The notes: generated by a model not told the origin, from the letters alone. A stretch of DNA of 54,417 bases from an uncultured Clostridia bacterium (GCA_964422405.1 CAYRAY010000001.1:1-54417); one strand, 5' to 3'. Counted from the first letter of the stretch, positions 13,930 through 48,569 are shown. Numbers and translations are program-made.

Positions 13930-14376
13930 TTATCGGTCTATCGGCGCGTTGCAACCGCTCAAACGGCGGCTCAACAATCGCTGTTGCGTTTCCGCCACGT
14001 CCGCCACAAACGGATAGACGAACGTCTTGCCGTCCAACTCGATGACGAGGCTTCCCCAACGCACGCCGATAATGGAATAATACAGCCGATACGAAACGTC
14101 CAAGACCTCTTTCATCGCATACCTGCCCTCGGGTAATTGCATTTCCGTGTCCGAAACGGAAACAATTTCATCAGGCAATTTTTTCCAACAAACGCACCTC
14201 CAAATACCCAAACCGCCTATGGCGACGCCGATGAGGATACTCACCACACCGGGCAAAAGGGTATACAGCCCCAGTGCGCACAAAACCACGCCGAAGCCCG
14301 TAAACAGCACACCGAGCGTAATCACCGCAATAAAATACGGCAACAGCCTCTGTTTTTTTCTTGCTATACATTCCAT
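13930..14376 (-). CDS. small membrane protein inserted between pyrK and pyrD
   Basis: 148 aa with two N-terminal TM helices and a soluble C-terminal domain. The start lies 2 nt after the pyrK stop. Confidence 0.55.
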   Translation of the reverse strand: MECIARKKQRLLPYFIAVITLGVLFTGFGVVLCALGLYTLLPGVVSILIGVAIGGLGIWRCVCWKKLPDEIVSVSDTEMQLPEGRYAMKEVLDVSYRLYYSIIGVRWGSLVIELDGKTFVYPFVADVAETQQRLLSRRLSGCNAPIDR

Positions 14377-14378
14377 GC

Positions 14379-15134
14379 CTATAAAACGACCTCCTTGGCG
14401 TTGAACACGGGTCCGTCCTTACAAACGCGGGCATTTTTACCGTTCGTCTGCTGACAAACGCACACCAAGCACGCGCCGATGCCGCAACCCATGCGTTCTT
14501 CTAAGGATACGTAGCAGAGCAAACCCTCCCGTTCCGTCACCTGCTTTAAGGCACGGAGCATCGGGGTCGGGCCGCACGCAAACACTACGTCGGGGCGGTT
14601 GCCTTTTTTCAAATCCGCCTCAAAGGCTTGCACGGCGTTCATCTGCGCGCCGTAACTGCCGTCGTCGGTCACCGCAATAAATTTTTGCGCTTTTACAAAT
14701 TCTTCCACGCCGCAAACCGCCGCGCGGTTTCTGTAACCGATATATGCCGCAATCTCTTTTTTATCGCCGTATTGCCGCAATACCGAAATCAGGGGAAACG
14801 TCCCCACGCCGCCGCCGACCAAGGCGATTTTCTTTTCGTTTTCTTCGGCAAAGAACCCGTTGCCCAGCGGCATCAGCACGCTTAAACGCGTACCTGCCCC
14901 CATGCTTTTCAAAATTTGCGTGCCTTCGCCTTTGATTTGGTAACAGAACGTCGCCGTGCTGCCCTCCGTTTTGCAAATGGCAATGGGACGGCGCAAAAGG
15001 TGTGTGCCGCCTACGGAAAGATCGGCAAACTGCCCTGCGCGGACGTCGACGACCTCGCCCAAATCCACCGTCAGCTCGTAAATGTTTTCCGCAATGTTTC
15101 TGTTGCTCAATACGGTTGCGTTAAAGTCTTTCAT
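14379..15134 (-). CDS. pyrK: dihydroorotate dehydrogenase electron-transfer subunit
   Basis: FAD/NAD-binding fold with a C-terminal Cys cluster CGIGACLVCVC for a 2Fe-2S centre. Confidence 0.9.
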   Translation of the reverse strand: MKDFNATVLSNRNIAENIYELTVDLGEVVDVRAGQFADLSVGGTHLLRRPIAICKTEGSTATFCYQIKGEGTQILKSMGAGTRLSVLMPLGNGFFAEENEKKIALVGGGVGTFPLISVLRQYGDKKEIAAYIGYRNRAAVCGVEEFVKAQKFIAVTDDGSYGAQMNAVQAFEADLKKGNRPDVVFACGPTPMLRALKQVTEREGLLCYVSLEERMGCGIGACLVCVCQQTNGKNARVCKDGPVFNAKEVVL

Positions 15135-15203
15135 GCTCTCTTTCCTTTGCCCTTGGCACTCTCGGCAACGTTGCCGCGTGGACGCATTTTTTGTCCGTGT
15201 TCC

Positions 15204-16115
15204 TTAGTCTGCACGCATTTCGCCGATGACGGAAGACAAGTCCTTTTGCATATCGATACAAGCCTGTCTTGCCGCCTCGTAATAGCTGCCGCCGTTCTTT
15301 TTATACGCACACAAAATCCCGCGCGAATTGTTGACGACGCCGCCCAAACCGTTTTGCTTAAAGCAGCTTTTCAGCATTTCCGCCTTGCCGCCTTGCGCGC
15401 CGTAACCGGGGATTAAGAAGAAGGTGTGGGGCAGAATACTGCGCAAGCGCGCCGCCTCTTCGGGGTGGGTTGCGCCGACCACCGCACCGACAGCGGAATA
15501 GCCGTATCTACCGACCGTGCTCTCCCCCCATTTTTCCACCAAACCGCCCATATACTCGTACATGGGTACGCCGTTTTGCAAAACGACGTTTTGAATTTCC
15601 GCGCCCGACGGGTTAGACGTCTTGACCAAAACAAAGATGCCTTTGTCATGTTTTTCACATTCTTCCACAAAGGGCAAAATGCCGTCCGAACCCAAATACC
15701 CGTTTACGGTGACGTAATCGGAAGGGAATGCGGAAAGGGTGTTCTCATTGACCTGCGAACAGCCCAAAAACGCCTTGGCATAGCAAGCTGCGGTAGAACC
15801 GATGTCGTTGCGCTTGGCGTCTGCAATCACGTACAAACCCTTGCTTTTTGCATATTGCAGGGTTTGGTAATAGGTCTGCATACCTGCCGCACCATACATT
15901 TCGTAATATGCAATTTGCACCTTGACGGAAGGCACGATGTCCGCAATGGAATCGATAATTTTTTTGTTGAACGCCAACACGCGTTCCGCCACGTCCTCAA
16001 AGTTCGTCGCCCCTTGACGCATATCGTCGGGAAGGTAGTCGAACAAAGTATCTAACCCCACGCAGGTCGGGTTTTGGGTTGCTATAATGCCGTCAATCAG
16101 CTTATCCGTAATCAT
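15204..16115 (-). CDS. pyrF: orotidine-5-phosphate decarboxylase (long type 2)
   Basis: 303 aa with operon context and the motif DAKRNDIGSTA. Confidence 0.85.
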   Translation of the reverse strand: MITDKLIDGIIATQNPTCVGLDTLFDYLPDDMRQGATNFEDVAERVLAFNKKIIDSIADIVPSVKVQIAYYEMYGAAGMQTYYQTLQYAKSKGLYVIADAKRNDIGSTAACYAKAFLGCSQVNENTLSAFPSDYVTVNGYLGSDGILPFVEECEKHDKGIFVLVKTSNPSGAEIQNVVLQNGVPMYEYMGGLVEKWGESTVGRYGYSAVGAVVGATHPEEAARLRSILPHTFFLIPGYGAQGGKAEMLKSCFKQNGLGGVVNNSRGILCAYKKNGGSYYEAARQACIDMQKDLSSVIGEMRAD

Positions 16116-16147
16116 GCTTTTTTCACTCCTAAAATGTTCTGTTGCGT

Positions 16148-17410
16148 TTACGCTTGATACTTCACTTCGCCGTCCACCACGGTATACTTCACCGCGCCGA
16201 ACAGTTTTTCACCGCCGAAGGGGCTGTTTTTGCCTTTGCTTACAAACGCTTGCGGATCGACCACCCAGCTTTCGTCCAAGTCCGCTATGGTGAAATCCGC
16301 CGCCTTGCCCTCTGCAATTTCGCCGCCGTCCAAACCCAAAATTCGGGCAGGAGCGTAAGACATTCTTTCCGCAATCTGCGGCAGAGTCAAAATCCCCGTC
16401 TTGTACAGCTTGGTCACGGCAAACCCGAACGAGGTTTCTATGCCGCTGATCCCGAACGCCGCCTGTTCGTATTCCACATTTTTATCGTCGAAGTGGTGAG
16501 GCGCGTGGTCAGTGACGATACAATCGATGGTGCCGTCTTGCAAGCCTTCCAAAATGGCTTGCTTGTCCCTTTCTTCACGAATGGGCGGATTCACTTTGGT
16601 GTTGGGGTCGTAGCCCTTGATAATCTCGTCCGTGAACGCATAGTAATGGGGGCAGGTTTCTGCCGTCACTTGCACGCCTGCCGCCTTTGCGTTGCGGATC
16701 ATTCTCACGCCGCTGTACGTCGAAACGTGGCAGATATGCACGGGGCAATCCAGCTCCTCCGCCAACGAAATTTCTCTGGCGATAATCACGTCCTCTGCGC
16801 TACGGGGAATACCGCGGAGTCCTGCAATGGTCGCGCTCAACCCTTCGTGTACGCAACCGCCGTCTACCAGGTCCTTATCCTCGCAATGGCAAAGGCAACG
16901 CACGTTAAAGCCCTTGGCGTATTCCATGGCAAGCCGCATCAATCTTGCGTTTTTCACAGTGACGCCGTCATCGGAAATCGCCACCGCACCCGCCTTTTTC
17001 ATGCCGCCGATTGCCGCCATTTCCTCCCCTTTCAAACCCTTGGTGATAGCGCCGATGGGGTGGATTTTGCAAAGACCCACTTCCTTGGCACGAGCTTTGA
17101 TGTAGGTCACCACCACTTTATTATCGACGACGGGGTTGGTGTTGGGCATACAGCAGATTTGCGTAAATCCGCCCTTGACCGCCGCCTTTGCACCGCTTTC
17201 TATGTCCTCTTTCTTTTCAAATCCCGGTTCGCGAAGATGTACGTGCATATCGATAAGTCCGGGGAACACGTGCAATCCGTCCGCACGGATTTCCTTGCCG
17301 CCGTCGGCAGGGATACAATCGGCAATCTTGACGATTTTGCCGTTCTCCACCAAAATGTCCTTCTTTGCTACGCCGTCCTTAAAAACAACTTGTCCGCCGC
17401 GAATAATCAT
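16148..17410 (-). CDS. pyrC: dihydroorotase
   Basis: 420 aa with the amidohydrolase motifs DMHVHLREPG and DHAPH. Confidence 0.9.
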   Translation of the reverse strand: MIIRGGQVVFKDGVAKKDILVENGKIVKIADCIPADGGKEIRADGLHVFPGLIDMHVHLREPGFEKKEDIESGAKAAVKGGFTQICCMPNTNPVVDNKVVVTYIKARAKEVGLCKIHPIGAITKGLKGEEMAAIGGMKKAGAVAISDDGVTVKNARLMRLAMEYAKGFNVRCLCHCEDKDLVDGGCVHEGLSATIAGLRGIPRSAEDVIIAREISLAEELDCPVHICHVSTYSGVRMIRNAKAAGVQVTAETCPHYYAFTDEIIKGYDPNTKVNPPIREERDKQAILEGLQDGTIDCIVTDHAPHHFDDKNVEYEQAAFGISGIETSFGFAVTKLYKTGILTLPQIAERMSYAPARILGLDGGEIAEGKAADFTIADLDESWVVDPQAFVSKGKNSPFGGEKLFGAVKYTVVDGEVKYQA

Positions 17411-18339
17411 ACCCCTCTCTCCTTTCTGTATTCGTTCAACAGCGTCAACGCCGACATACGTACGGCAACGCCCGAAAGCACTTGATCCTCGATACGGCTG
17501 CGCTCGTGGTCGATGACGCCGCTGGTCAGTTCTACGCCGCGGTTAACGGGACCGGGGTGCAACACAATGGCGTGCGGTTTGGCAAGCGAAAGCAATTCTT
17601 CATTGACGCCGAAGTTCGCCGCGTATTCGCCGAGCGAAGGGAAGTTGCCTGCCTTTTGGCGTTCCAACTGAATACGCAAACCCATAACGGCATCTGCTCC
17701 GTCTAACGCTTCTTCACGGGAGCGGCACACCTTTGCACCCAACTCCTCGATCCCTTTCGGCAACAGGGTGTTGGGGGCATACATCGCCACTTCCGCGCCC
17801 ATGGTCTTTAAGCCGAATAGATTGGATTTTGCCACACGGGAGTGTTTGATATCCCCCAAAATTGCCACCTTTAAGCCTTTCAGCGTGCCAAAGGTCTGGC
17901 GCAGAGTCAGCATATCCAACAAAGCTTGCGTGGGGTGTTCGTTAATGCCGTCGCCTGCGTTGAGGACGCTCGCCTTTACCGTTCTTGCCAAAAGGTAGGG
18001 CGCGCCGCCCATGGGATGACGCATCACCAAAAAATCGTTCTTTTGTGCATCCAATGTTTTGCCCGTATCCACAAGCGTTTCCCCTTTCGCCACCGACGAA
18101 GTGGAAGCCGCGATGTTGACAGTGGTCGCGCCGAGGTATTTTGCCGCTTGCTCAAAGCTGGTTCTCGTTCGGGTGCTGTTCTCGTAAAAGAGAATGGTCA
18201 CCGTTTTCCCGTCTAAAACGCTCGTCTTTTTTTCGCCGCGCTGAATACGGGTTTTGTATTCGTGCGCCAGATCGAGGAGTTCGGTAATCTCCCCTTCGGA
18301 CGCGTCGATAAGTCCCAACAGATCCTTTCCTTTCAGCAT
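17407..18339 (-). CDS. pyrB: aspartate carbamoyltransferase catalytic subunit
   Basis: Motifs STRTR and HPTQ are present. 4-bp overlap with pyrC. Confidence 0.9.
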   Translation of the reverse strand: MLKGKDLLGLIDASEGEITELLDLAHEYKTRIQRGEKKTSVLDGKTVTILFYENSTRTRTSFEQAAKYLGATTVNIAASTSSVAKGETLVDTGKTLDAQKNDFLVMRHPMGGAPYLLARTVKASVLNAGDGINEHPTQALLDMLTLRQTFGTLKGLKVAILGDIKHSRVAKSNLFGLKTMGAEVAMYAPNTLLPKGIEELGAKVCRSREEALDGADAVMGLRIQLERQKAGNFPSLGEYAANFGVNEELLSLAKPHAIVLHPGPVNRGVELTSGVIDHERSRIEDQVLSGVAVRMSALTLLNEYRKERGV

Positions 18340-18375
18340 ACTCTGCTCCTTTGTATTTTCGTGTTCGGGGTATCA

Positions 18376-18421
18376 AATAAACGGGGGAATTATACATACC
18401 CGTTTAAACGATAGTTTAAAC
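18376..18421 (-). promoter_or_regulatory. candidate transcription attenuator in the pyrB leader
   Basis: On the minus strand, GTTTAAAC-tatc-GTTTAAAC can pair with itself. It overlaps the 5-prime arm of AAACGGG-(12 nt)-CCCGTTT followed by ATTTGAT. No PyrR-box-like sequence was seen. Confidence 0.35.
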
Positions 18422-18440
18422 ACATTTTTTCTCATTTTTT

Positions 18441-18469: not shown

Positions 18470-18524
18470 GAGTTCGACAGCCGTTTTTAGCGACCTTTCA
18501 AACTCTTTTTCCGTGATTTTTCCG

Positions 18525-20458: not shown

Positions 20459-20542
20459 TTGTTTATAGCCTATGCGGCAGGGCGGAAAAATAGTACGACG
20501 TAACGAAAAACGTATACGGAGTTCCGTTTTTATTGCCGTTTT

Positions 20543-20589
20543 TAAGATACACTCCGCTCACCTGCGTTGCAGGTTCGGTCGGTATGACA
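20543..20589 (-). repeat. dispersed repeat family 1, copy D
   Basis: The reverse complement reads TGTCATACCGACCGAA-CCTGC-aac-GCAGG-TGAGCGGAGTGTATCTTA. The adjacent TACGGAGTTCCGTTTTT (20515-20531) also matches 3997-4015. Confidence 0.75.
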
Positions 20590-20652: not shown

Positions 20653-22206
20653 ATGAAAAACAATATCTACGCCAACGCCACCGTGGTTACGGGGCTGTCC
20701 GTTGCCGAACGCGCCCTCGGCTTTTTATACCGTATCGTCCTCTCCCGTCTGCTCGGCGAAGAAGGGTTGGGGTTATACCAAGTCGCCCTGTCCGTATTCG
20801 CCCTGTTTATCACCCTCTGTTCGGGCGGAATCCCCATGACGGTATCGAGGACGGTTGCCAAATACCGCGCGGACGGCGACGAGCGTACAGCAAGTGCCGT
20901 GGTGGGTGCAGGGGTGACGGCAAGTCTGCTTTTCACCCTGCCCGTATGTCTGTTCTTCGGCTTGTTCGGGCGGAAGATGACCTTTCTGTTTTCCGACGAG
21001 CGGACGTACGACGTGTTCCGCATCTTGTTGTTGGGGCTGACCTGCAACTGCGTGTACGCCGTGTTCCGCGGACATTTTTGGGGGCGGAAAGTCTTTCTGC
21101 TCCCCTCCGTTGCCGATTTTTTAGAGGAATCGGTGATGGTGATTATCGGGGTTTTGTTGTTGCAATCGGCGCACGAACCCCTGCACGGGGCAAAGTTGGC
21201 GGCATGGGCGGTCGTCCTTTCGTACCTGTTCTCGTTTGCGCTGTCGGGGATATTTTTTGCGATCAAGGGCGGAAAAGTGCGCGCGGAAAAAGGGCAACTT
21301 CCCAAACTCTTGCGCGCGGCAACCCCCGTCACCGCCGTGCGCGCCGTGGGGGCGTTGGTCAATTCTGCCATTGCCGTGTTGTTGCCTGCCATGCTGGTCA
21401 AATCGGGCATAGACGAACGGGAAGCGTTGCGGCAATTCGGCGCGGTTTCGGGCATGGTTGCGCCCATGTTGATGATCCCTGCCACCTTAATCGGCTCGTT
21501 GGCGTTGGTGTTGATGCCCGAACTTTCGGAAGATTTCCACAAAAAACGGTTAGCGCGGTTGCGGCGCAATCTGGCGCGCGGCATCAAATTTTCCTTTCTG
21601 GTTGCTTGCTCCCTGATTCCCTTTTATTTTGCCTTGGGCGAGGACTTCGGCAAGCTGATTTTCCACAGCCCCTACGCAGGGAAAATGCTGAAAAATAGCT
21701 GTCTTTTGCTGCTGCCCATGAGCCTTTCCATGATTTCCTCTGCCATGCTCAACTCGTTAGGGTTTGAAAAACAGACGTTGTTTTTCTACTTTGTCGGCGC
21801 GGCAGCAAACTTGCTTTGCGTGCTGCTGTTGCCTCCGCTCTGCGGCGGTTACGCCTATATTTTGGGACTTTTTGCGAGCTATGTTTTTACCGCCCTCTGC
21901 AACCTAATTTTTATTGCCAAAAAATGCCCGATTTATCCAAAACGGAGGGGGCAGGTATGCGTTCACGAGTATTTTCCACACCTTTTCGCCATGCTGTTTT
22001 TAAGCCTTTCCGCCGCCTTTTTGCACAGCATTTTTAAGAAAATCACAGGGGAAACTGCCGCCGTTGCGCTGACCGCAGCCCTGCTTACTGCAGAAACGCT
22101 TTTCGCCTTTTGGGCGACGGGGTGCATACCGCGCAACATAATAAAAAAGCTGTTGCCGCACAAAACAACCGCCCCGACTTCCGTTCCGCATAAAAAACGC
22201 CCGTAA
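20653..22206 (+). CDS. SpoVB/MurJ-family polysaccharide/lipid II flippase
   Basis: 517 aa with about 14 TM segments. The N-terminus LGFLYRIVLSRLLGEEGLGLYQ is typical of SpoVB/MurJ. Confidence 0.8.
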   Translation: MKNNIYANATVVTGLSVAERALGFLYRIVLSRLLGEEGLGLYQVALSVFALFITLCSGGIPMTVSRTVAKYRADGDERTASAVVGAGVTASLLFTLPVCLFFGLFGRKMTFLFSDERTYDVFRILLLGLTCNCVYAVFRGHFWGRKVFLLPSVADFLEESVMVIIGVLLLQSAHEPLHGAKLAAWAVVLSYLFSFALSGIFFAIKGGKVRAEKGQLPKLLRAATPVTAVRAVGALVNSAIAVLLPAMLVKSGIDEREALRQFGAVSGMVAPMLMIPATLIGSLALVLMPELSEDFHKKRLARLRRNLARGIKFSFLVACSLIPFYFALGEDFGKLIFHSPYAGKMLKNSCLLLLPMSLSMISSAMLNSLGFEKQTLFFYFVGAAANLLCVLLLPPLCGGYAYILGLFASYVFTALCNLIFIAKKCPIYPKRRGQVCVHEYFPHLFAMLFLSLSAAFLHSIFKKITGETAAVALTAALLTAETLFAFWATGCIPRNIIKKLLPHKTTAPTSVPHKKRP

Positions 22207-24587: not shown

Positions 24588-26894
24588 ATGCGTTTTCCTA
24601 AAAAGATTGATTTTTCGCGGACGGGGTTTTACGCGCTGTTCGGGGTTGCCGCGCTGTTTTTACAGTTTGTGGGGGACAACGGCGAGCCACTGTCGCTTGC
24701 GCTTTTATACGGGGTGGTCGGCATGGGTTTTTCGCCCACGCTGTCCGCCCTTTGTTGCGCCTATCCCGTACTGCTTTTCGGCGAGCTGAAATTCAGCCTG
24801 CTCTTTTTCGGACAAGCCGCTTTGGTGGCGTTGGGGCAAGCTTTGCAAGGGAAATTGCGCAGAGAACGCTGGCGACGTTCGGGCGTGCTTGCGCTGACCT
24901 GCCTTGCGCTTGCCCTGTGCTTGTTCGTGCGGTTTGCGCCCTTTGCGCCCTATGCGTTGCCCCTGCCGCATCGGTGGCAACCCACCGCCCTTACGCAAAA
25001 AATTTTGATTGCCGCCGCCGTACTTTTGTTTGCCGCCGTCTTTTCCGTTGCCTTAAAAACGCTTTTAAGAAAGTTTTTGCGGTGCAAATTACGCAACGAC
25101 GAAAAGGTTTTTACGCTGTTGTTCTTATTACTTGTCGGGGTGGGAGCGTGCCGTTTTTTGGGTGTGAACGCGTACATGGGTGCCTCATTTTTCATTTTGT
25201 TGGTGTTTGCAAGCTGTACAAAAAATGCCGAAAGCATGCTTTGTGCGTTTGCGCTTGCACTGCCGCCATTGCTGGTGGCGCAAGTGTCAGTGGTAAAGCT
25301 GTGTCTGTACGGCGTAGCCGTTTCCGTTGCCATAAAATCGGGAAAGGTCGCCGCCGTGTGCGCGCTTTTGACGGTGTTTTTCGCCGTCGGGTACTTCGAG
25401 GGGTTGTACCAAGCCCCTGCCGCGCGGTTGGTGCCGACCTTGCTATCCGCACTGATCCCCACCCTGCTATTCGTTTTGATTCCGCCGCCCCTATTGCGAG
25501 GGTTAGAAAACAAGGTAGAATTTTACCGAGAAAAGCATTTGACTCGCGTAGCAATCAACCGCAACCGTGCCGCCATCGGCGAAAAGTTGTTTGAAATTTC
25601 GGCGGTGTTCCGTGAAATTCAGGCGGCATTTACCGCCATCGGCGCGGAGGAAGCAGAGGCAGGTGCGCGAGAGTACATACAAAATTGCGTCCTTGACGAG
25701 GCATGCAAGGGTTGTCCGCAATTTTTACTCTGTCAAAAACGGAATGTCTTTTCCGCCCTGCCCTCTCTCATCGGGGTTGGGTGCGCGAAGGGGCGAGTGA
25801 CGCTCATCGATCTGCCGCGTGCGGTGGCGGACGCGTGCAACAACCAAAGCGCGCTGTTGTACGCACTCAATCGGCAACTGACCGAGTACCAAAGCTACGT
25901 ATCCGAAACGGAAAACGCGGCAAGCGGCAGGGCGTTGTTGGCAGGGCAGGCGCAGGGCGTGAGCGAGATTTTGAAATCGCTTGCCTTGGAACAGAGCGAG
26001 CCTTTGAAAGTGTACGCGGAAAAGGAGCGGTGTTTGTGTGCCGCCCTGATGCGCGTGGGCGTTGTGTGCAGCGAGGTGCTGTTGTACGGCGAGGAAGAAA
26101 ACGTGACCCTGTCCTTGGTGTCCTTTGGAAAGGCGGACGTGAAATTGATTGCCGACACGGCAACGAGGGTGTTGCAAACGACGATGACCATTTCTGAACG
26201 GCTCCCCCTTTCCGACGATAAATTCTGTTGCATTTTACGCAAAAGACCCGTGTTCGATGCGGCATTCGGGGTTTCCGCCGTCAAAAAGCACGGACAAACG
26301 GCAAGCGGTGACACGCATTCTGTCATTCGTTTGGACGAGCGGAAGTTTATGGTTGCCCTGTCCGACGGCATGGGGAGCGGCGAGTATGCCAAGCGTGTTT
26401 CCGAAAGCACCATTGCACTGTTGGAGAGTTTTTATCGAGCAAAAATGCCGTCGCCGCTGGTGCTTTCTTCCGTGAACAAATTGCTGACGTTCGGCAAAGA
26501 GGAAAGTTTTGCGTGCGTGGACGTTGCCACCGTGGATTTAGACAGCGGCGTTGCCGATATCGTCAAAATCGGTTCTCCCCTCGCCTTTATTCTTTCTGGC
26601 AATACCGTGAAGATTTTAGAAAGCGCGTCTTTGCCGCTCGGCATTTTAGACGCCTTGCGCCCCGATGCGTCCAGCTATATTTTGGAAGAGAACGACGTGT
26701 TGCTGTTCATCAGCGACGGCGTAAGCGATGCGTTCGGTTCGGCAACAGATTTGTACGAGGCATTGCGGAATATTCCCATACACAACCCGCAACTGCTTGC
26801 CGAAAAATTGATTGAAAGCGGTTTGCGCGCGAGTGGCGGCGTAGCCAAAGACGATATGACAGCGGTTGCCGTGCGGCTGTTCAAAGCGGCATAA
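24588..26894 (+). CDS. spoIIE: stage II sporulation protein E (PP2C phosphatase with polytopic N-terminus)
   Basis: 768 aa with about 10 N-terminal TM helices, a central region, and a C-terminal PP2C domain (GDTHSV...SDGMGSG...ISDGV...DDMT). Confidence 0.85.
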   Translation: MRFPKKIDFSRTGFYALFGVAALFLQFVGDNGEPLSLALLYGVVGMGFSPTLSALCCAYPVLLFGELKFSLLFFGQAALVALGQALQGKLRRERWRRSGVLALTCLALALCLFVRFAPFAPYALPLPHRWQPTALTQKILIAAAVLLFAAVFSVALKTLLRKFLRCKLRNDEKVFTLLFLLLVGVGACRFLGVNAYMGASFFILLVFASCTKNAESMLCAFALALPPLLVAQVSVVKLCLYGVAVSVAIKSGKVAAVCALLTVFFAVGYFEGLYQAPAARLVPTLLSALIPTLLFVLIPPPLLRGLENKVEFYREKHLTRVAINRNRAAIGEKLFEISAVFREIQAAFTAIGAEEAEAGAREYIQNCVLDEACKGCPQFLLCQKRNVFSALPSLIGVGCAKGRVTLIDLPRAVADACNNQSALLYALNRQLTEYQSYVSETENAASGRALLAGQAQGVSEILKSLALEQSEPLKVYAEKERCLCAALMRVGVVCSEVLLYGEEENVTLSLVSFGKADVKLIADTATRVLQTTMTISERLPLSDDKFCCILRKRPVFDAAFGVSAVKKHGQTASGDTHSVIRLDERKFMVALSDGMGSGEYAKRVSESTIALLESFYRAKMPSPLVLSSVNKLLTFGKEESFACVDVATVDLDSGVADIVKIGSPLAFILSGNTVKILESASLPLGILDALRPDASSYILEENDVLLFISDGVSDAFGSATDLYEALRNIPIHNPQLLAEKLIESGLRASGGVAKDDMTAVAVRLFKAA

Positions 26895-29629: not shown

Positions 29630-30268
29630 TTAGTCTTCGATTTGGAAAGGTGCGTAATAGCTATCCCCTTTTTCCACCGAAATTCTGCCCTGTAAAAAGT
29701 CGATAAGCCCCGTGGTAAACCCGTCCGTTTCCGCTTTTTTTACAGCGATTTTGAAGGTCACTTTTTCTCCGTAATCGCAAGAAAGGAGGGAACAGGTATG
29801 CGATGAAAGGTATTTTTGCAGGCTGTCCACCTCCGAATACCCCACCGACAAAAGCAGCTCTTCGCACATTTCTAAAACACGGATATCCGCCCCGTCTAAG
29901 TTCTCCGCCGCCGAGGAAGAATAGGCGCGCACCAAGCCGCCGGCACCGAGTTTAATCCCCCCGAAATACCGCACGACCGCTACCGCCGTTTCAAACAATT
30001 TTTTGTTTTTCAACACCTCTAAAATGGGAACGCCTGCCGTGCCTTGCGGTTCTCCGTCGTCGGAAAAGCGTTGCAAGTTGCCCGCCTTATCGGAAATGAA
30101 CGCAAAACAGACATGGGTTGCAAGGCTGTGTTTTGCACGGATTTCCGCAATGAACGCGCGCGACTCCTCCTCTGTTTCCACGTGTGCGGAGTAGGTGATG
30201 AACCGAGAACGCTCGATTATTTTTTCGCTTTCGTGACGGCTAAACACCGTCCGTACCGATTTTTCCAT
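29630..30268 (-). CDS. yigZ: YigZ/IMPACT family protein
   Basis: 212 aa. KSRFI-like IERSRFITY, DDGEPQGTAG and RYFGGIKLGAGGL are hallmarks of UPF0029. Confidence 0.8.
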   Translation of the reverse strand: MEKSVRTVFSRHESEKIIERSRFITYSAHVETEEESRAFIAEIRAKHSLATHVCFAFISDKAGNLQRFSDDGEPQGTAGVPILEVLKNKKLFETAVAVVRYFGGIKLGAGGLVRAYSSSAAENLDGADIRVLEMCEELLLSVGYSEVDSLQKYLSSHTCSLLSCDYGEKVTFKIAVKKAETDGFTTGLIDFLQGRISVEKGDSYYAPFQIED

Positions 30269-32593: not shown

Positions 32594-32700
32594 AGGCTTT
32601 GGGCAAAATTTTACGATAAAAAATAGCGTATAAAAACAAAAATGAACGGGGCAGGTATGCGACGAACGCAAAATCAGTTCCGTTTCCGTTACCATTTTTT

Positions 32701-34597: not shown

Positions 34598-34646
34598 AAC
34601 GCGTACATGGTATGTCCGTTTTATTTTCAACACGTACCTGCCCTAT
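34598..34646 (+). repeat. composite repeat E1 (two family 2 cores, 31-bp phasing)
   Basis: AAAACTCAACGCGTACATGGTATGTCCGTTTTATTTTCAACACGTACCTGCCC. About 45 nt are shared with E2 at 43722. Confidence 0.75.
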
Positions 34647-34680
34647 CCGTTTGGATAGGGCAGGTATTCTGTATTTTATA
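34635..34680 (+). terminator. yunB terminator built from an inverted pair of family 2 cores
   Basis: TACCTGCCCTATCC-gttt-GGATAGGGCAGGTA (14-bp stem) followed by a T-rich tract. Confidence 0.75.
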
Positions 34681-36561: not shown

Positions 36562-36611
36562 CGCGTACCTGCCCCCTATATCCAAATTTCATCGCGCACC
36601 TGCCCCTATGC
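36559..36611 (+). repeat. tandem pair of family 2 cores at the spoVAC start, 31-bp phasing
   Basis: CATCGCGTACCTGCCCCCTAT and CATCGCGCACCTGCCCCTATGC. Confidence 0.8.
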
Positions 36612-38947: not shown

Positions 38948-40822
38948 TTATTTCACGTCCACTTTTACGCCGCCGAACGTCGATTTAATTTCCTCGACGG
39001 CTTTATTAAAATCATCTGTTTTTTTGCCGCGCAAACGGATTTCAAACCCGTCGCTGTCTATACCGATTGCCGCAAACGCCTGCGTGATCAGCGCGTAATG
39101 ATCCTCGCGCATCAACGAACGATACGCTGTTTCGCTTTGGGTAGACAGAACGAGTTTCCCGTTCTCGAATGCACTGTCCAAATCCATGCAAATGGTAATC
39201 AGCACCCCGTTTTTCGCCGTTTTGCGCACACTCCGCAAAAACAAACCGAAGGTCACGCGCGGATCGCCGCTCGCCGCGGCGCGTTGCCGCTCGGTAATCC
39301 CCATCTGTTTCGCCGTTTGCACGCCGTCCGAAACGGTCGTTTTTCTCTCCGCCGCAAAAACGGGCGAAGGCTCTGTCACGCTTGCGCTTGCACGGAGGGG
39401 GCGCTCCGCACTCTGTTCCGTTTTCCGCTCCGTCCGCCGCGTGCATACGGGCGCATCGAAGTAAGCGCTGCCGCCCATTTCCGCCTCGTCGGGGGGGGCT
39501 TCGGGCAAGGGATAGTCCTCTTCCATCGGTGCGGAGGACAACGCCTCGGCCTCGTTTTTCACCGACGACAACGGTTTTTGTTGAGTCATAGCTTTCGGCT
39601 CGGTTGCCACAGTCGCCGCCTCGGAATTTGCGTTCATCGCGTACATGGGTGCCGTATTTGCGGCAAATGCGCCCTGCGCAAGCTTGGTTTCCAGCTCGTT
39701 CACGCGCGCAATCAACGCGTCGATATCGTAATCAGCAGAAGGCATACTCGCCTTCAACACCGCCGTTTCAAACAAAATTCTAGGCGAGGTGGAATACTTC
39801 AAATCCGTTTCCACGTTGGCAAAAATTTCCGTCACGCGCAGAAGCCTGTGTCCGTCCGTCGCCTTGGCAATTTGCGCCACTTCCGCATACATATCGTCGG
39901 GCAAAGCCAAAATCGCCTTGCCGTCGCGGCAGGTCTTTGCCACGGCGCACCCGTTCAAAAAGTTCAGCACGTCGCCAAGCAACATACCCACGCTTTTGCC
40001 TGCGGACAAAAACCCTTCCGTCCGCTCGAACGCGTCGCCGGCGTTTGCCGAAAGCACCGCCGAACAGAGCTTCGCCACCGCCGAAAAATCCGCCGTGCCC
40101 AGCACCGCCGTCACGTGCGCGTACGTCAGTTTGCCGCCCGTGTACGAAGCGCAAGTATCCGCCACCGAAAGCATATCGCGCACGCTCCCTGCGCCCGCTC
40201 TGGCAATGGCAGAAATCGCCTCGTCGTCGTACGTTTTGCCGATACTGTCAAACACGTAACGCAACCGACTTTCCAAATCCGCTTGCGGAATCAACTTAAA
40301 ATCGAACCGCATACAACGGGAAAGAATGGTCGCAGGAATTTTTTGCGATTCCGTAGTTGCCAAAATGAACACCGCGTGCGAAGGCGGTTCTTCCAACGTC
40401 TTCAAAAGCGCATTGAACGCGCCAGTCGAAAGCATGTGCACTTCGTCGATGATATACACTTTATATCTGCCTGCCACGGGCGGATATTGCACCTTTTCGC
40501 GTAGGTCGCGCATTTCGTTCACACCGTTGTTCGACGCCGCGTCAATTTCCGTAATATCCAAATTTGACGGGTCTTTCAATGCCTTGCACGCCGCGCACAC
40601 GCCGCAGGGCGAACCGTCCTTGGGGTCGGTGCAGTTGATTGCTGCGGCAAAAATTTTGGCAATACTCGTCTTGCCCGTGCCGCGCGGACCGCAAAACAGA
40701 TATGCGTGCCCGATTTTGCCCGTGTTGATTTGATTTTTCAATACCGTAACGATATGTTCCTGCCGCACCACGTCGTTCAACGTTTTGGGTCGGAACATAC
40801 GGTATAAAGCCAAATGCGCCAT
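38948..40822 (-). CDS. dnaX: DNA polymerase III subunit gamma/tau
   Basis: Walker A GPRGTGKTS, a zinc module CGVCAACK and YIIDEVHML. Start MAHLALYRMFRP follows GGAG. Confidence 0.9.
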   Translation of the reverse strand: MAHLALYRMFRPKTLNDVVRQEHIVTVLKNQINTGKIGHAYLFCGPRGTGKTSIAKIFAAAINCTDPKDGSPCGVCAACKALKDPSNLDITEIDAASNNGVNEMRDLREKVQYPPVAGRYKVYIIDEVHMLSTGAFNALLKTLEEPPSHAVFILATTESQKIPATILSRCMRFDFKLIPQADLESRLRYVFDSIGKTYDDEAISAIARAGAGSVRDMLSVADTCASYTGGKLTYAHVTAVLGTADFSAVAKLCSAVLSANAGDAFERTEGFLSAGKSVGMLLGDVLNFLNGCAVAKTCRDGKAILALPDDMYAEVAQIAKATDGHRLLRVTEIFANVETDLKYSTSPRILFETAVLKASMPSADYDIDALIARVNELETKLAQGAFAANTAPMYAMNANSEAATVATEPKAMTQQKPLSSVKNEAEALSSAPMEEDYPLPEAPPDEAEMGGSAYFDAPVCTRRTERKTEQSAERPLRASASVTEPSPVFAAERKTTVSDGVQTAKQMGITERQRAAASGDPRVTFGLFLRSVRKTAKNGVLITICMDLDSAFENGKLVLSTQSETAYRSLMREDHYALITQAFAAIGIDSDGFEIRLRGKKTDDFNKAVEEIKSTFGGVKVDVK

Positions 40823-42910: not shown

Positions 42911-43663
42911 CTATGCCGCGCCCATCAAATACGCCGCAGCCCCTGCGGCAACGGCGTGCGCGATTTTTTGTTGCCACACCGTATCGACCAGCAACGCCTC
43001 GTCCGCCGCGTTGGACAAAAATCCGCATTCCACAAGCACGGACGGCACCTCCGCACACCGCAAAATGAAAAAATCCGCCTCCGAAGCCGACCGCCCTTTC
43101 ACGCCGACTTCCCCGTACAAATCGTTCAAATTCCGTTGCACGCAAGCGGCAAATGCCGCATTTCCGCGCCCTGTAAACACCGAATTTTCCGCCGACGAAA
43201 TTCCGTTTTCGCCCTGTCTTCCAACCTCCTTGCCGTAAAAGACCTGCGCACCACGTTGCATTTTAGACGGGTAAAAATTTTGGTGCACGGACACAACCAA
43301 CGCAGGGTTTGCGGCTTGAATAATCTCCTTGCGCCGTTGCATATCCCGCTTTTTAAAACCGCGAGTCGCCGTATCGTACAGCCCTGCCTCCGTGCGCCTC
43401 GTCATCACCACCTCAAACCCCATTTCCGTCAGCGTATCCCGAACCCGAAAGGCAATCGCCAAATTTAAATCGCTCTCCTTCACCCCCGTTTTCCGCCCCG
43501 TCACGCCGCCGTCTATGCCGCCGTGCCCGGCGTCCACCACAATCCGCATTTGCGTATCGAAGGCGGAAACCTCCGCCGCATGAATGGCGCGTACGCAAAG
43601 CGCCACCGCCGTAAAAAAGCAAGCCAACAACACTGCCGCACAGGCAAACACACTCTTTTTCAT
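42911..43663 (-). CDS. cwlD: N-acetylmuramoyl-L-alanine amidase CwlD-like
   Basis: Signal/TM N-terminus followed by an Amidase_3 domain: VVDAGHGGIDGG, SVHQN and ECGFLSN. Confidence 0.8.
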   Translation of the reverse strand: MKKSVFACAAVLLACFFTAVALCVRAIHAAEVSAFDTQMRIVVDAGHGGIDGGVTGRKTGVKESDLNLAIAFRVRDTLTEMGFEVVMTRRTEAGLYDTATRGFKKRDMQRRKEIIQAANPALVVSVHQNFYPSKMQRGAQVFYGKEVGRQGENGISSAENSVFTGRGNAAFAACVQRNLNDLYGEVGVKGRSASEADFFILRCAEVPSVLVECGFLSNAADEALLVDTVWQQKIAHAVAAGAAAYLMGAA

Positions 43664-43721
43664 ATCCCTATTTTACGGCACTCCGCCCCCGAATATGCCC
43701 GTTTTTTTATTTTTAACAACC

Positions 43722-43775
43722 AAAACTCAACGCGTACATGGTATGCCTGTTTTCTTTTCATCGCGTACATGGTAG
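43722..43775 (+). repeat. composite repeat E2 (two family 2 cores, 31-bp phasing)
   Basis: AAAACTCAACGCGTACATGGTATGCCTGTTTTCTTTTCATCGCGTACATGGTAG. Confidence 0.75.
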
Positions 43776-43833: not shown

Positions 43834-44755
43834 TTACACTGTCGTTTTTGTTTCCGCCGTTTTCGGCAAGGGCAACAAGGGCAATTTTTCCTCTTTCAGC
43901 ACGGAATTTTCCATCGTCTTTTCCCCTTTTCCGCGCAACTCCGCACCAAACCTCAACACCTCTGCGCGTGTTTTCAGTTCGGGGAAGTCGATTTTCTCCA
44001 CCTCTTTCATCCACTCCGAATACATCTCCCACGCGCGCGAAGTAACGATTCGTCGCACACCTGCTGCCCGCATTTTCTTAAAAGCGGTCAACGTATTCAC
44101 TTCCGACACCTGCAAAAGACAGCCGTTTTTCAAATCCTGTTTCAACTTTTCGCACCCCTCAAAGTAAGGCACGCAAAAATATTGCAACCCCGTTTCCGCG
44201 CAAATCCTCCCCACTTCCGAAAGCACGGACGCGCCGTACACCCGATCCACTCGGCATTTCAGCACCGCCTTTTTTGTGGCGCGCCGCAACTTTTTCAGCT
44301 CCTTTCGGATTGCTCCGTAACGGCAATTCGCCACCGAGTACGGCGACAACATCACCGTAATTTCCTTGGCTTTCAGCCGCAGAGCGCGCCGCGCCTCATA
44401 CGCCTTCACGCGCGCAATCGTTTCGCCGTCGCCGCCCACCGTGCAATCCACCGCCACGCCGCTGCGGATAAAAATTTCGCCCAGCTGTTCCAGCCGCTCC
44501 GTAGACATACGCACCGCCGCCTGCCTAAGCCGCATCGCCCGCTCACGCACCCGTTTCACGTCCTCGAAGTTGGTCAACACTCCCTCGGAATCGGCAATCG
44601 CACCCAAAATTTCCGCACGCTTCCTCTGCCGTTTATACTCCCGATACTCCACCGCCTCGTCCGCCGTAATACTCACACGCCGTTGTTGCCACAAATCCGC
44701 TTTCGTAAAATTCGTTTGACTTTCCGTTTGCTGTTCCATGCGCAAATTATGCGAC
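43834..44755 (-). CDS. DeoC-like aldolase-fold protein, probably non-canonical
   Basis: The central region VAVDCTVGGDGETIARVKAYEARRALRLKAKEITVMLSP...AVLKCRVD resembles deoxyribose-phosphate aldolase. A TTG start at 44755 follows AAAGGAG. The N-terminal part of track ORF 43834-44949 is doubtful. Confidence 0.45.
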
Positions 44756-44820
44756 AAACAAACTCCTTTTATACCCTTTTTATCCTTTTTATGACAGAAC
44801 GCACGTTGTATACTTTCCGC

Positions 44821-45180
44821 ATGAATACTTTTTTCCTCGCCGCCAAGCGCGACCCTATCCCACTCCACAACCTGCTCCTCAGCGCGCAACTCACGGGCGG
44901 CGCGTTCGGGGTCGTGTTCCTGTTCGCCTTCTGTTTCTTCCTCGTCCACCTTTTGAAATATGCCAAACTCGGCTGGTCATTACGGAACACACCCCTGCCC
45001 GACAAAAAGCAACCGACCGACCAAGCCGCCAAGCCTTCCGCTCCCATCAAAACGGAATCCCCACCGCCGCCAAAAGAAAAAGCCCCTGCTGTGCAAGAGC
45101 CTATCTATTATATCGTGGAACGCAAGCGCACGCGTTCCAAAACAAAATACGGCGAGCCGAAAGAAATCCGTTTTCAATAA
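44821..45180 (+). CDS. possible small membrane protein (weak)
   Basis: MNTFFLAAKR...GGAFGVVFLFAFCFFLVHLL has a TM helix and a P/K-rich tail, but there is no clear RBS. It is the tail of an otherwise antisense track ORF. Confidence 0.25.
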   Translation: MNTFFLAAKRDPIPLHNLLLSAQLTGGAFGVVFLFAFCFFLVHLLKYAKLGWSLRNTPLPDKKQPTDQAAKPSAPIKTESPPPPKEKAPAVQEPIYYIVERKRTRSKTKYGEPKEIRFQ

Positions 45181-45300
45181 ACGCCGCACGCTAAAACCAT
45201 GTGTTCAAGCGCGCGTGAAAACCACACACTTCCGTTTTTCGTCCGCGTGTTTTCTATACAGAGCTTCGCCGCGCGCAAAAACGCGCCGCAAAAAATCGTC

Positions 45301-45696
45301 TTACTTTTCTGGGGTAACAGTGTACAATTCCCCCGTTTTTTCATTGAAATATTCCACGTTGCCGCCGTCCGTCCACAAGCGTTCCAAGTGGTAGAACAAT
45401 CTGGTTTCGTCGTTGAAAATGTGCGCGATAACGTCACCATAATCCAACACCGCCCAGCGCCCGTCGCGCACGCCCTCGGTACGGGAAGGCACCAAGCCCA
45501 AATTCTTTTCCACAAGTTCTTCCACGCGCTCGCCCATCGCCTTAATTTGCGGCGCGTTGCTACCGCTCGCAATGACGAAATAATCGCAAAGGTCGGTCTT
45601 TTCGCGCACGTACAACGCCACGATGTCCTTGCCCAACTTATCCGACAACGCCTTGCAAATTTCTTCTGCCAATGCCTTACTGCTTACTTTTTCCAT
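45301..45696 (-). CDS. rsfS: ribosome silencing factor RsfS
   Basis: 131 aa. DYFVIASGSN and WAVLDYGDVIAHIF are typical of the iojap/RsfS family. Confidence 0.85.
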   Translation of the reverse strand: MEKVSSKALAEEICKALSDKLGKDIVALYVREKTDLCDYFVIASGSNAPQIKAMGERVEELVEKNLGLVPSRTEGVRDGRWAVLDYGDVIAHIFNDETRLFYHLERLWTDGGNVEYFNEKTGELYTVTPEK

Positions 45697-45721
45697 TTTA
45701 ATAACTCCTTTATTTTTCCTT

Positions 45722-46855
45722 TTATTCAGCGTAATACCGATACGCCTCTTCCGTCAGCGAATACACCGCAAACCCCTTCCGTTCCAAATATTCCAGAATA
45801 TGTTTTAAGGTTTCCGCTAAACATTTTTCCAAGTCCTCGGCAAAGAGTTTTCTAAGCTCCTCCGCCTCCGCAAACGTCCTCGACGGCTCCAAAACGTCCG
45901 CCAAATACACCACTTTTTCCAAACGACTCATGTTCGCCCTGCCGCTGGTATGGAAGCGGATTGCATTCAACACGTCCTCATCCTTGACCCCAAAACGGGT
46001 TTCCGCCAAGTACGCGCCCGAAAATTGATGCGCGATGTTGGGCAGCACTTCACCCCACGTATTCGGCGGCGTAAAGCCACGCAAATATTCGCTATCCGTC
46101 GGCAGATTTTTGGCGCAATCGTGAAACAGAGCGGCGGTAATTGCCGCGCGTTCGTCCACGCCGTACCTCACCGCCATCTTCGCCGCAAGGCATGCCACAC
46201 GCAAACTATGCGCCGCGCGTTCGGGCTTTTCCAAGGCAAGCGCCTTATCCGCGTTTTCTATTTTGTACAAGCCATGTTTTTGAATATACGCTTCCACACT
46301 TTCGCTTACGTACGGCGTTAAACGCATACCTGCCCCTGCCAAAACACGAATTTGCGTAGACGAAACCGCCGCGCCGTTGTACGAAAAGGCGCAAAAATTT
46401 TTGCCGAATTTCGCAAAAAATGCTTGCTGTTCCTCCTGTTGCCAACCGTCGTTTTCCGCCCTGCCGCAAACGGCAAGGCTCACGTTCTCCAAAATATCTT
46501 CGGGGTTTTTCCACGTCGAAAAATCCCGCAACATATCCGTGCCGACAATCCAAAAAATCTCCGCCGTCGGGTACAGCGCACGGAAATGCCGACAGGTCAA
46601 ATAGGTATAGCTCGTCCCCTCGGCGCGCGCCTCAAAATCGCTGACCTCCGCCCTTGCTACGTCTGCAAACGCAAGGCGGCACATCGCCAACCGATCTTCC
46701 ATAGGCGACATTCTTTTCCCCGGCTTGTGCGGCGGCTGATAGGCAGGCATCACAATCAGCTTGTCCAACCCCAGTTCCAAAATTGCCGCTTGCGCCAAGC
46801 GAATATGCTCCGTATGCACGGGATCGAACGACCCACCAAAAATCGCTATTTTCAT
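45722..46855 (-). CDS. nadD: fused nicotinate-nucleotide adenylyltransferase (NadD) and YqeK-type HD hydrolase
   Basis: The N-terminal half has GGSFDPVHTEH. The C-terminal half has an HD domain (HSLRVA...LFHDCAK...RFHTSG). Start MKIAIFGG follows AAGGAG. Track residues upstream of 46855 were rejected. Confidence 0.8.
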   Translation of the reverse strand: MKIAIFGGSFDPVHTEHIRLAQAAILELGLDKLIVMPAYQPPHKPGKRMSPMEDRLAMCRLAFADVARAEVSDFEARAEGTSYTYLTCRHFRALYPTAEIFWIVGTDMLRDFSTWKNPEDILENVSLAVCGRAENDGWQQEEQQAFFAKFGKNFCAFSYNGAAVSSTQIRVLAGAGMRLTPYVSESVEAYIQKHGLYKIENADKALALEKPERAAHSLRVACLAAKMAVRYGVDERAAITAALFHDCAKNLPTDSEYLRGFTPPNTWGEVLPNIAHQFSGAYLAETRFGVKDEDVLNAIRFHTSGRANMSRLEKVVYLADVLEPSRTFAEAEELRKLFAEDLEKCLAETLKHILEYLERKGFAVYSLTEEAYRYYAE

Positions 46856-46998
46856 ATCTCTCCTTAACAATCCGCGTTCTAAAAACCACACTTGCTTTTC
46901 AGGCAACACACTCAACGCAAAAGGTCTTTTTACCATTATACTATATATTTTTGCGTTTTTCAAGTTTAATTTCAAACTTTTTAGACAAAAATGCAAAT

Positions 46999-47829
46999 AT
47001 GAAAAAATTTGCCTACGTTTCCGACCTGACTTTCTTCTTTTCGGTCAGTTTTTTATGCTCCGCGTGCGCCTTTCGCCTGCTCCGCCTGCCCTTTTGGCAG
47101 TCCGTCGCTCTCAGCACGCTCTGCGCCGTCTTAACCACCCTTTCCGCGGCGGCATTTCTCCGCAACAAATACCAACGCACCCTCTTAAAAAAGTCGGATG
47201 AACGTCAAAAAGAAAGGTTGCTTTTTCATCTCGCCCTGCAAGGCGATGAGCAAAACCGTCACTTCTTTTCTGATTTCTTCACGGCGACCGCGCCGAAAAA
47301 CACCCCTATCCAAATAGAATGCCCCGACGGGGCAACCGCAATAGAAGCAGCAACCGAGCGAGCCGCCGCTCACACAACCGAGCAAGCCGCCGTCCGCCAC
47401 AAAGACGGCACATTTACCTGCAACGGCGTGCGGCAACTTTGCCTGTTCCGCCTAACGCCGCTCACCGCCGACGACTTATTGCCCCTTCTGCGTATCCAAG
47501 CGGAAACGCCCAAGCGCCTGCTTTGCGCCGAGTTAGACGAAAAATCGCAAGCACTCTGCAAGCGGTATAACATAGAAATTTGGACAGGTGAACGGGTGTA
47601 TACCGAGCTCAAATCCGCCCGACTCTTGCCACCTCTGCCCGACGAAACCCCGACCAAAAAAGCAAGAAAAAAATTATGGTTCGCCAAATCCAACGCCAAG
47701 CGCTTTTTAACCAGCGCGGCGCTGTTACTACTCGCCGCCCAACTCACGCCCTTCTTCCTCTACTACCTACTGTTTGCCTTCGCCCTGCTCTGCGCAGCCG
47801 TGTTCACACGCATTTTTGGGTACGAATAA
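46999..47829 (+). CDS. membrane protein, function unknown
   Basis: 276 aa with two TM helices at each end and a soluble middle. Start at ATG 46999. Confidence 0.5.
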   Translation: MKKFAYVSDLTFFFSVSFLCSACAFRLLRLPFWQSVALSTLCAVLTTLSAAAFLRNKYQRTLLKKSDERQKERLLFHLALQGDEQNRHFFSDFFTATAPKNTPIQIECPDGATAIEAATERAAAHTTEQAAVRHKDGTFTCNGVRQLCLFRLTPLTADDLLPLLRIQAETPKRLLCAELDEKSQALCKRYNIEIWTGERVYTELKSARLLPPLPDETPTKKARKKLWFAKSNAKRFLTSAALLLLAAQLTPFFLYYLLFAFALLCAAVFTRIFGYE

Positions 47830-47835
47830 CGCCGC

Positions 47836-48540
47836 TCATTCCAACCGAACGGACACCTCAGCCGACGTCAATCTCCGTCTTTCGCCGCCGATTTCCGCAA
47901 TCAATCCACCCTGCTCGTCCACAGAAATCAGCCTACCATGTACGCGTTCATCGCCCAAAATCAAGGTCACCTCCCGTCCCAGATAGCCGATATACGCAAG
48001 GTACTCGTCCATCGTCCGCTCCTTATACAATTCCAAAAGCAGTCGCTCCGTCACTTCCTCTACCGAAAAGGTCTTGCCTGTCACAAGCTCCATGCTCGTG
48101 GCGATATCGCAAAGCTCGCCCTCAAACGCGCCGTTCACGTTCAAACCCACGCCCACCACGGACGATTGCACCTTGTCGCCGCAAAACACGTTTTCAATCA
48201 AAATGCCGCAAATTTTTTTATCTTGCACGAACACGTCGTTCGCCCACTTAATCACGGCGCTCACGCCAAACGCGCGCAACGTTTCGCACACGGAAACCGC
48301 CGCATTCGCCATAATCTTAAAACTATCCTTTGCTGAAAAATCGGTATAAAAACGGAGCAGAGAAAGGTACACGCCTCCCTTGTTAGAAACAAAGCCCCGT
48401 CCTTTCGTGCCTCTGCCCCCCGTCTGCACGGTGGCGGTCACCGCCAAATCCTCGCCGTTTTTTCGCATCGATTTGGCGTAATTATTTGTGGAATCAATCC
48501 TTTCAAAATGCACCCGTTTCAGCGAGTTTTTTTCATTCAT
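47836..48540 (-). CDS. birA: biotin--protein ligase without an N-terminal HTH
   Basis: 234 aa. QTGGRGTKGRGF matches the GRGRxGR biotin-binding loop. Confidence 0.8.
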   Translation of the reverse strand: MNEKNSLKRVHFERIDSTNNYAKSMRKNGEDLAVTATVQTGGRGTKGRGFVSNKGGVYLSLLRFYTDFSAKDSFKIMANAAVSVCETLRAFGVSAVIKWANDVFVQDKKICGILIENVFCGDKVQSSVVGVGLNVNGAFEGELCDIATSMELVTGKTFSVEEVTERLLLELYKERTMDEYLAYIGYLGREVTLILGDERVHGRLISVDEQGGLIAEIGGERRRLTSAEVSVRLE

Positions 48541-48569
48541 CGCATACCTGCCTATGCCGTTTTGATTTT

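Follow-up and report, generated by a model that had tools for sequence, protein, structure and literature searches.

What kind of element is a word of 11-12 nucleotides that recurs, inside unrelated genes and between them, far more often than expected? The question is raised by a stretch of 54,417 nt from an uncultured Clostridia bacterium (GCA_964422405.1 CAYRAY010000001.1:1-54417), hereafter the window, in which an earlier note had pointed to a family of such words. We confirmed that the over-represented motif family is real, and we tentatively propose that it is one long recognition word on duplex DNA, characteristic of a whole clade of gut Clostridia and comparable to the uptake signal sequences (USS) of Pasteurellaceae and the DNA uptake sequences (DUS) of Neisseriaceae.

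The word CGCRTACCTGCC, which takes in the exact 12-mers counted before (five copies of one and two of another), occurred seven times in the window (14116+, 14887+, 21950-21961-, 32650-32661-, 36562+, 46323+ and 48541+), compared with 0.01 expected from shuffles of the window. In the same way, the 11-mer CGCGTACATGG occurred six times (25169+, 34600+, 39638+, 43731+, 43762+ and 47936-47946-), compared with 0.03 expected. All these copies had been placed correctly by the earlier note, as had its close variants at 34631, 36593, 25659-25669- and 15877, each of which carries one mismatch. In total, the window contains 13 exact cores where about 0.04 are expected, and 22 copies once one mismatch is allowed; both words rank among its most repeated 11-12-mers. 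Non-ascertained copies were used to build a 20-nt position-weight matrix (PWM), with which a rescan recovered 17 sites in the window compared with 0.05 in shuffles. The scores are bimodal, with 16 of the 17 sites at 19.8 or above and the range from 9 to 15 nearly empty, so that there is no tail of decayed copies. The copies are spaced 3-7 kb apart through genes and spacers, at a density of 0.31 per kb.

Read on the strand of most genes, i.e. as the reverse complement of the version given by the earlier note, the unit spans about 35 bp and takes the form W5-N-S-N2-WWW-N7-8(S-rich)-[S]CAKGTAYGCG-WTSA, with two upstream forms, a G-rich variant A (GGGGCAGGTAYGCG) and a balanced variant B ((C)ATACCATGTAYGCG or ATACCAGGTAYGCG). 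The unbiased logo, drawn from 69 copies outside the search pattern's selection, exhibited an A/T tract at -20 to -16, AAA or WWW at -11 to -9, G at -7 and GG at -2/-1 upstream, and W-T-S-A-a (T 84%, G 67%, A 93%) downstream of the core [S]CAKGTAYGCG. The similarity of the flanks claimed before is retained, while the proposed consensus of about 30 nt is revised, the conserved flanks being TTSAW and, on the opposite side, CC...WWW...W5. This logo gave no support to a general hairpin that would pair TAYGC with the upstream flank, and that reading was rejected. The window holds 34 GTAYGCG heptamers, 14 of them with CAK directly before, and the 7-mers alone are near the Markov expectation (16 vs 8.4 and 18 vs 14.6 expected). 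The excess is therefore confined to a context of 10 nt or longer, which makes the unit a long one (10-16 nt at minimum, plus flanks) and not one the size of Chi. The information content of the motif is about 27 bits.

The Pfam assignments agree with the gene labels (pyrK, pyrF, a MurJ/SpoVB-type flippase, SpoIIE, YunB, the spoVA operon, DnaX-YbaB-RecR, NadD-HD, RsfS, BirA and RecX), and the coding copies fall in these housekeeping and sporulation genes in all three phases and both orientations, as had been claimed for unrelated genes. Strands of single copies are given from here on in the most-genes reading of the motif, opposite to the plus-strand reading of the earlier note. Variant A is found in sense within pyrK (14887-14897, -; phase 0, encoding GAGTRL), within the flippase gene, which is a lagging-strand gene (21951-21961, +; phase 2), and within the nadD-HD gene (46323-46333, -; phase 0, encoding GAGMRL). 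Variant B is found within spoIIE (25169-25179, -; antisense, as CCATGTACGCG), in the variable linker of dnaX (39638-39648, -; sense, phase 1) and within birA (47936-47946, +; antisense). A near copy with one mismatch (ACAGGTATGCG then ATGAA) lies antisense within a UPF0029 gene (29792-29802, +), and a weak copy (GCAGGTGTGCG, PWM 15.0) within a 371-aa gene that has no Pfam match (44054-44064, -). Under a codon-aware null of the kind suggested in the earlier note, a shuffle preserving every protein and the codon usage of each gene, we observed 4 sense and 2 antisense coding copies compared with 0.52 and 0.45 expected (about 1.0 in total, a sixfold excess), and 4 sense copies were reached in none of 2000 shuffles.

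The flanks (A/T at -20 to -16 and -11 to -9, S at -14 and WTSA at +11 to +14) were equally present in 26 sense and 15 antisense coding copies, a comparison that includes some coding copies that are orthologs of one another. The flank tracts occur as A-runs or T-runs in both coding orientations. As the same flanks on antisense copies are unexpected for a signal at the mRNA level, these features point to recognition of the duplex DNA over about 35 bp. Together with the phases, the orientations and the synonymous-codon shuffle, they uphold the claim that the signal acts at the nucleic-acid level and is not a protein motif.

We then consider the distribution of the motif. When 185,579 species genomes were scanned for CGCRTACCTGCCCCNNNNNTTT, at least 120 stretches matched. 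Among the matches listed, about 110 of the 120 stretches, from at least about 57 assemblies, belong to one clade, composed of Candidatus Scatosoma and unnamed gut Clostridia known as metagenome-assembled genomes (MAGs), whose hosts are chicken, human, deer, sheep and goat; the motif is present in at least 50 related species. In the 770 kb of clade loci drawn from these matches, the PWM found 111 further copies beyond the ascertained ones, i.e. 0.144 per kb, and in 9 unrelated chance loci from the same matches it found none. As would be expected of an uptake signal, the word is, among the matches listed, shared by relatives, with no extra copies in the unrelated loci, and it stands far above compositional expectation both in the window and in the 770 kb of clade loci. 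Synteny with the window was found for eight of the loci (66-84% DNA identity), and the source of the window therefore belongs to the same clade. The exact birA product was found elsewhere only on one 1.3-kb Logan contig. In the window, only 6S RNA (RF00013, 3984-4163, +, 54.3 bits) reached the Rfam gathering threshold, and no family corresponds to the motif. The literature contained the motif string in no relevant context, the string matches being primers only, and nothing relevant was found on USS in Firmicutes. As far as could be found, the motif is thus not a described element, as the earlier note had supposed. A search of viral contigs gave 2 matches only, one of them plausibly clade-derived; a 4956-bp IMG/VR contig (L003, 48% GC) bears one full-scoring copy at 1558-1577 (PWM 29.6) and is possibly a piece of a phage or prophage from the clade.

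Comparison with the loci of relatives (numbered with an L) showed how the copies change. At the nadD copy, L037 is identical to the window over 20 nt, L111 retains part of the motif, and L093 and L008 lack it, without gaps in the alignment. The antisense copy of birA lies in a 32-nt run identical with L111 despite 68% overall identity, and is absent in L093. L037 has a degenerate version of the dnaX copy, which two other species (L041 and L099) lack. At the spoVAC start the motif is present in the window and in L099, whereas L087 has a canonical AAGGAG, and the yunB/spoVA spacer carries motif hairpins of differing architecture in the window and in L087. Within genes the orthologs differ by substitutions without indels, and where the motif is kept it gives identical runs of 20-32 nt in comparisons at 66-84% identity. 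These comparisons indicate that copies are gained and lost by substitution and then tightly held, unlike mobile elements.

An uptake-signal-like word ranks first among the readings on its long and invariant core, the A/T tracts on one side, the sharing by a clade together with turnover, the intragenic copies in every frame, the intergenic enrichment, the terminator pairs and the motif-borne starts. The USS of Pasteurellaceae (core AAGTGCGGT, with flanking A/T tracts) likewise combine a near-invariant core with one-sided A/T tracts about a helical turn apart, and they are clade-specific, occur in hundreds of copies, lie in genes in several frames and orientations and are enriched between genes. 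They also form terminators as inverted pairs and show an orientation bias in genes (PMC2346458, PMC1852404). For USS and DUS, inverted pairs have been reported to act as terminators (PMC1852404), with an orientation bias of about 2:1 within genes and open reading frames (ORFs) that start at the ATG of the motif (PMC2346458). Here too, the copies within genes lie in several frames and both orientations and arise by point mutation, and inverted pairs form terminator hairpins, for a minority of copies. The DUS of Neisseriaceae (ATGCCGTCTGAA and dialects) resemble the motif as a word on the 12-mer scale common to numerous species of one clade, often located in terminator hairpins and containing a start-codon-like triplet in which ORFs begin, but we saw no dialect structure in the motif and most of its copies are single, not hairpins. 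The DUS receptor is ComP, a type IV pilin. DUS and motif both end in TGAA.

Under this proposal, hundreds of copies per genome would be kept by a process acting on the DNA, and neither transposition nor protein coding would maintain them. Uptake or recombination of DNA would include a step with a sequence preference, favouring the fragments that bear the word, and point mutations toward the word would become fixed wherever coding or regulatory constraints allow. Biased uptake as the driving process is what we infer from these patterns. A stronger form, in which this spore-forming gut Clostridia clade would be naturally transformable, with a self-preferring and sequence-specific uptake, the first uptake signal in a Gram-positive lineage and a new receptor of the Com machinery that reads sequence, appears rather unlikely to us.

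Several observations weigh against an uptake signal. To our knowledge, sequence-specific uptake has not been reported for Bacillota, and the members of the clade are uncultured MAGs. The uptake words of Haemophilus and Neisseria occur about once per kb, and the density found here, 0.14-0.31 per kb, is below this figure. Two upstream variants coexist within one genome. The distribution along the window is patchy, with no motif copy at 1-14100 (aminoacyl-tRNA synthetases, MatE and pyrD/pyrE) or at 48600-54417 and about 0.5 per kb elsewhere. Orientation is a further difficulty, as in leading-strand genes of the loci the internal coding copies are 59 sense and 20 antisense (75% sense), and in spacers between leading-strand genes 83% of the copies are co-oriented, a stronger bias than published for USS; composition accounts for only part of it. 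The bias in coding regions seems partly, perhaps largely, compositional or codon-driven, and the co-orientation in spacers probably reflects the orientation that is tolerated or useful there, the sense strand being Shine-Dalgarno-like and the antisense strand anti-Shine-Dalgarno-like. Compared with the Pasteurellaceae words, moreover, the motif is unrelated in sequence, less dense, hosted by the phylum Bacillota, split in two upstream variants and more strongly co-oriented with transcription in spacers.

Should the motif prove to be a signal for uptake or recombination, the preference for self-DNA would extend beyond two proteobacterial families into abundant gut Bacillota, gene exchange would be frequent inside the clade in the gut, and the word, added to donor DNA, would offer a handle for genetics in organisms so far neither cultured nor transformed. 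As the site of an architectural protein, it would instead be a new and very information-rich chromosomal code. In both cases, the motif marks the clade cleanly, which is of use in binning and in recognising host-derived DNA.

The architectural protein is, as we rank the readings, the main rival, although we consider it doubtful: the copies would be high-affinity sites of a clade-specific chromosomal or architectural DNA-binding protein, whether nucleoid-associated, organising the chromosome or bending the DNA, and would be kept by selection on chromosome structure or global regulation. In its favour, a long footprint (about 35 bp) whose A/T tracts lie roughly one helical turn from each other is suggestive of DNA bending or wrapping, sense and antisense coding copies have identical flanks, conservation of the motif extends to at least 50 species, and neighbouring units share flanks where they adjoin at exactly 31 bp. 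However, about 27 bits is far above what a few hundred sites need, the fast positional turnover between species is unusual for selected architectural sites, the copies do not cluster in any visible chromosomal domain, and no candidate protein was identified.

The 31-bp spacing itself had been taken by the earlier note as a possible array of protein-binding sites at four loci. Three direct pairs stand, 34600/34631, 36562/36593 and 43731/43762, while 5302/5333/5364 belongs to a different repeat family (TGTCATACCGACC...GAGCGGAGCGTATCTTAC). In the spacer of the convergent yunB and spoVAE-like genes, the downstream member is a variant B copy (34600-34610, -) and the upstream member a near copy of variant A (GCAGGTACGTG; 34631-34641, -), which is also one arm of a hairpin. 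Next to spoVAC, a near copy (GCAGGTGCGCG; 36593-36603, -) lies 31 bp upstream of a variant A copy (36562-36572, -), and upstream of the Amidase_3 gene both members are variant B copies (downstream, 43731-43741, -; upstream, 43762-43772, -). At this spacing the TTGAA of one unit (+11 to +15) falls exactly on the W5 tract (-20 to -16) of the next, so that 31 bp corresponds to the closest packing of two 36-bp units. The 770 kb of relatives contained one pair at 32 bp, one at 42 bp and one sub-threshold pair at 31 bp (L095), and the 31-bp pairs were not conserved at the orthologous loci of relatives. A functional array was therefore not supported, the phasing being explained by end-to-end packing and unconserved in relatives. 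CRISPR-like arrays were discarded, as no periodic arrays of the motif were found.

A second alternative, which we judge improbable, places the function in the RNA: the motif would be a module of gene boundaries (ribosome-binding site and start, 3' end or terminator, processing or binding site) and its coding copies would be incidental. We examined the context of 203 exact cores in 894 kb (window plus loci), for which the gene calls in the loci come from our own codon-usage model and stop-to-stop ORFs, so that the context classes are approximate. Intergenic copies represent 81 of the 203 (about 40%), where at most 17% of the DNA is non-coding (stop-to-stop ORFs cover 83%), and copies are enriched 3-5 times between genes. 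Where neighbouring genes are co-directional, 53 of the 63 copies between them are co-oriented, many of the copies being found 2-60 nt past a stop codon or adjoining a start. About 20 of the 203 lie at most 45 nt from the upstream stop of an ORF (about 10%, just 5' of starts), and 31 copies (about 15%) are start-like, the WTG after GCG being in frame with the downstream ORF in 17 of them. GGCAGGT, moreover, resembles a Shine-Dalgarno sequence.

In the window, a variant A copy adjoins the ATG of birA (ATG 48540; copy 48541-48551, -), from which the 234-aa product is a called gene in an independent assembly, and the copy at 36562 adjoins the ATG of spoVAC (36561), where it stands in place of the canonical Shine-Dalgarno sequence of the ortholog in L087. 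Another (GCAGGTATGCG then ATGAA; 14116-14126, -; PWM 28.1) sits immediately 5' of the ATG at 14115, an in-frame codon of a small pyr-operon ORF without Pfam match, and a further variant A copy lies between the WYL/HTH regulator gene and murG, in the orientation of both genes (32651-32661, +). Two variant A copies, inverted tail to tail, form a hairpin of 15 pairs at 34634-34667, between yunB and the convergent spoVAE of the spoVA operon, and this is the best terminator-like site in 30-50 kb, in agreement with the yunB terminator described by the earlier note. Five perfect inverted pairs were found, sharing a TTSAA loop (offset 16). Intergenic copies are co-opted, GGCAGGT-N5-WTG-AA serving as Shine-Dalgarno sequence and start codon and inverted pairs as terminator hairpins, and the motif misleads gene callers by supplying pseudo ribosome-binding sites and start codons. 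In relatives, perfect two-copy palindromes of 15-18 bp with the TTSAA loop were seen at L014 7006-7040, L058 6742-6780, L114 379-415 and L087 around 3904; they have A-runs and T-runs at their flanks and look like bidirectional terminators.

Nevertheless, such positions at gene ends and starts, i.e. ordinary terminators and Shine-Dalgarno sites, do not account for all copies. About 50% of the copies in window plus loci are internal to genes, 36 of them antisense, and the antisense copies keep the same flanks, whose W tracts occur in either polarity. A Shine-Dalgarno-like part is missing from variant B, and a canonical AGGAG lies downstream of several copies, on which grounds a pure Shine-Dalgarno sequence was also rejected. 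Perfect hairpins account for about 3% of copies only (hairpins overall for about 3-5%), the single copies have no conserved structure, and 6S RNA is the only Rfam family that reaches the gathering threshold in the window.

The polarity of the copies raises a third explanation, in our view quite improbable, namely a replication-oriented signal of genome maintenance, of the type of Chi (AddAB) or of the FtsK-orienting polar sequences and SpoIIIE recognition sequences (KOPS/SRS). At four-fold sites, the coding strand has a GC skew of +0.19 in minus-strand genes and of -0.13 in plus-strand genes, which identifies the minus strand as the leading strand across the window. The shared orientation of 13 of the 17 copies claimed before was reproduced with the PWM sites, the 13 being on the leading (minus) strand. 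Like Chi and the KOPS/SRS octamers, the motif is over-represented with its majority on the leading strand, and the sense bias of coding copies is lost in lagging-strand genes of the loci (5 sense vs 8 antisense, a small sample). The 5' half of variant A (GGGCAGGT) presumably resembles KOPS (GGGNAGGG). However, the motif is 2-4 times longer than such octamers and is flanked, a unit of 5-8 nt is not the over-represented entity (GTAYGCG is near Markov expectation), and inverted pairs and antisense copies are common. The polarity appears partly, perhaps largely, compositional. Variant A, with about 6 more G than C, is distributed 24 leading to 9 lagging, and its G excess, given the measured strand skew, alone predicts a strong bias; the balanced variant B gives 14 to 10, not significant in this small sample, and the 2-5-mismatch neighbourhood of the balanced 11-nt core gives 51-53% orientation. 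A replication skew independent of composition was thus not found in these small samples. Among the analogies offered by the earlier note, the uptake signal fits best, and the Chi- or KOPS-like ones are not supported, given the length of the unit and the lack of a significant bias in variant B.

Least probable of all, a miniature mobile element or one resembling the repetitive extragenic palindromes and bacterial interspersed mosaic elements (REP/BIME) of REP-associated tyrosine transposases (RAYT), spread by a transposase and leaving half-copies as decay products, would share with the motif its shortness, high copy number, clade specificity and the perfect palindromes of 14-18 bp formed by some spacer copies after genes, but REPs are extragenic hairpins, whereas most copies here are single and non-palindromic (about 3% perfect palindromes), half lie in conserved genes without indels where orthologs differ by point substitutions, and neither a tail of decayed copies nor target duplications were seen. 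The RNA-level, Chi/KOPS and REP-like readings therefore all rank below an uptake-signal-like word and an architectural protein site. Promoters (sigma-70, ECF, sigma-54 and sporulation sigma, compared by eye with consensus sequences) were rejected, as spacing and key bases misfit and many copies adjoin starts or are genic, and the consensus sequences of Spo0A, cre and IHF gave no convincing match.

Some minor features of the window are recorded here. A 33-codon upstream ORF (43663-43761, -) starts at the ATG provided by the motif copy at 43762, and its end overlaps (ATGA) the start of the Amidase_3 gene at 43663, which may be translational coupling or coincidence. The second repeat family, TGTCATACCGACCGA...(G)TGAGCGGAGCGTATCTTAC(C), is unrelated to the motif and occurs at 5301-5375, 10298-10404, 20542-20589 (-) and 4375-4402. 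At 10298-10404 the repeat and an imperfect inverted copy after it make up a long palindrome. Against Rfam at E <= 1, the family gave no convincing match, only a weak and implausible one to mir-299. A class Ib aminoacyl-tRNA synthetase of the Trp/Tyr type (10486-11768, -) is split into two overlapping ORFs, 11004-11768 (profile positions 7-227) and 10486-11073 (profile positions 164-291), a pattern compatible with a frameshift, a pseudogene or an assembly error. Finally, an ORF of more than 1386 aa (50259-54416, +) runs past the end of the window; it has no Pfam domain and no motif copies, and contains repeated 12-mers (ACGGGCACGGTG).

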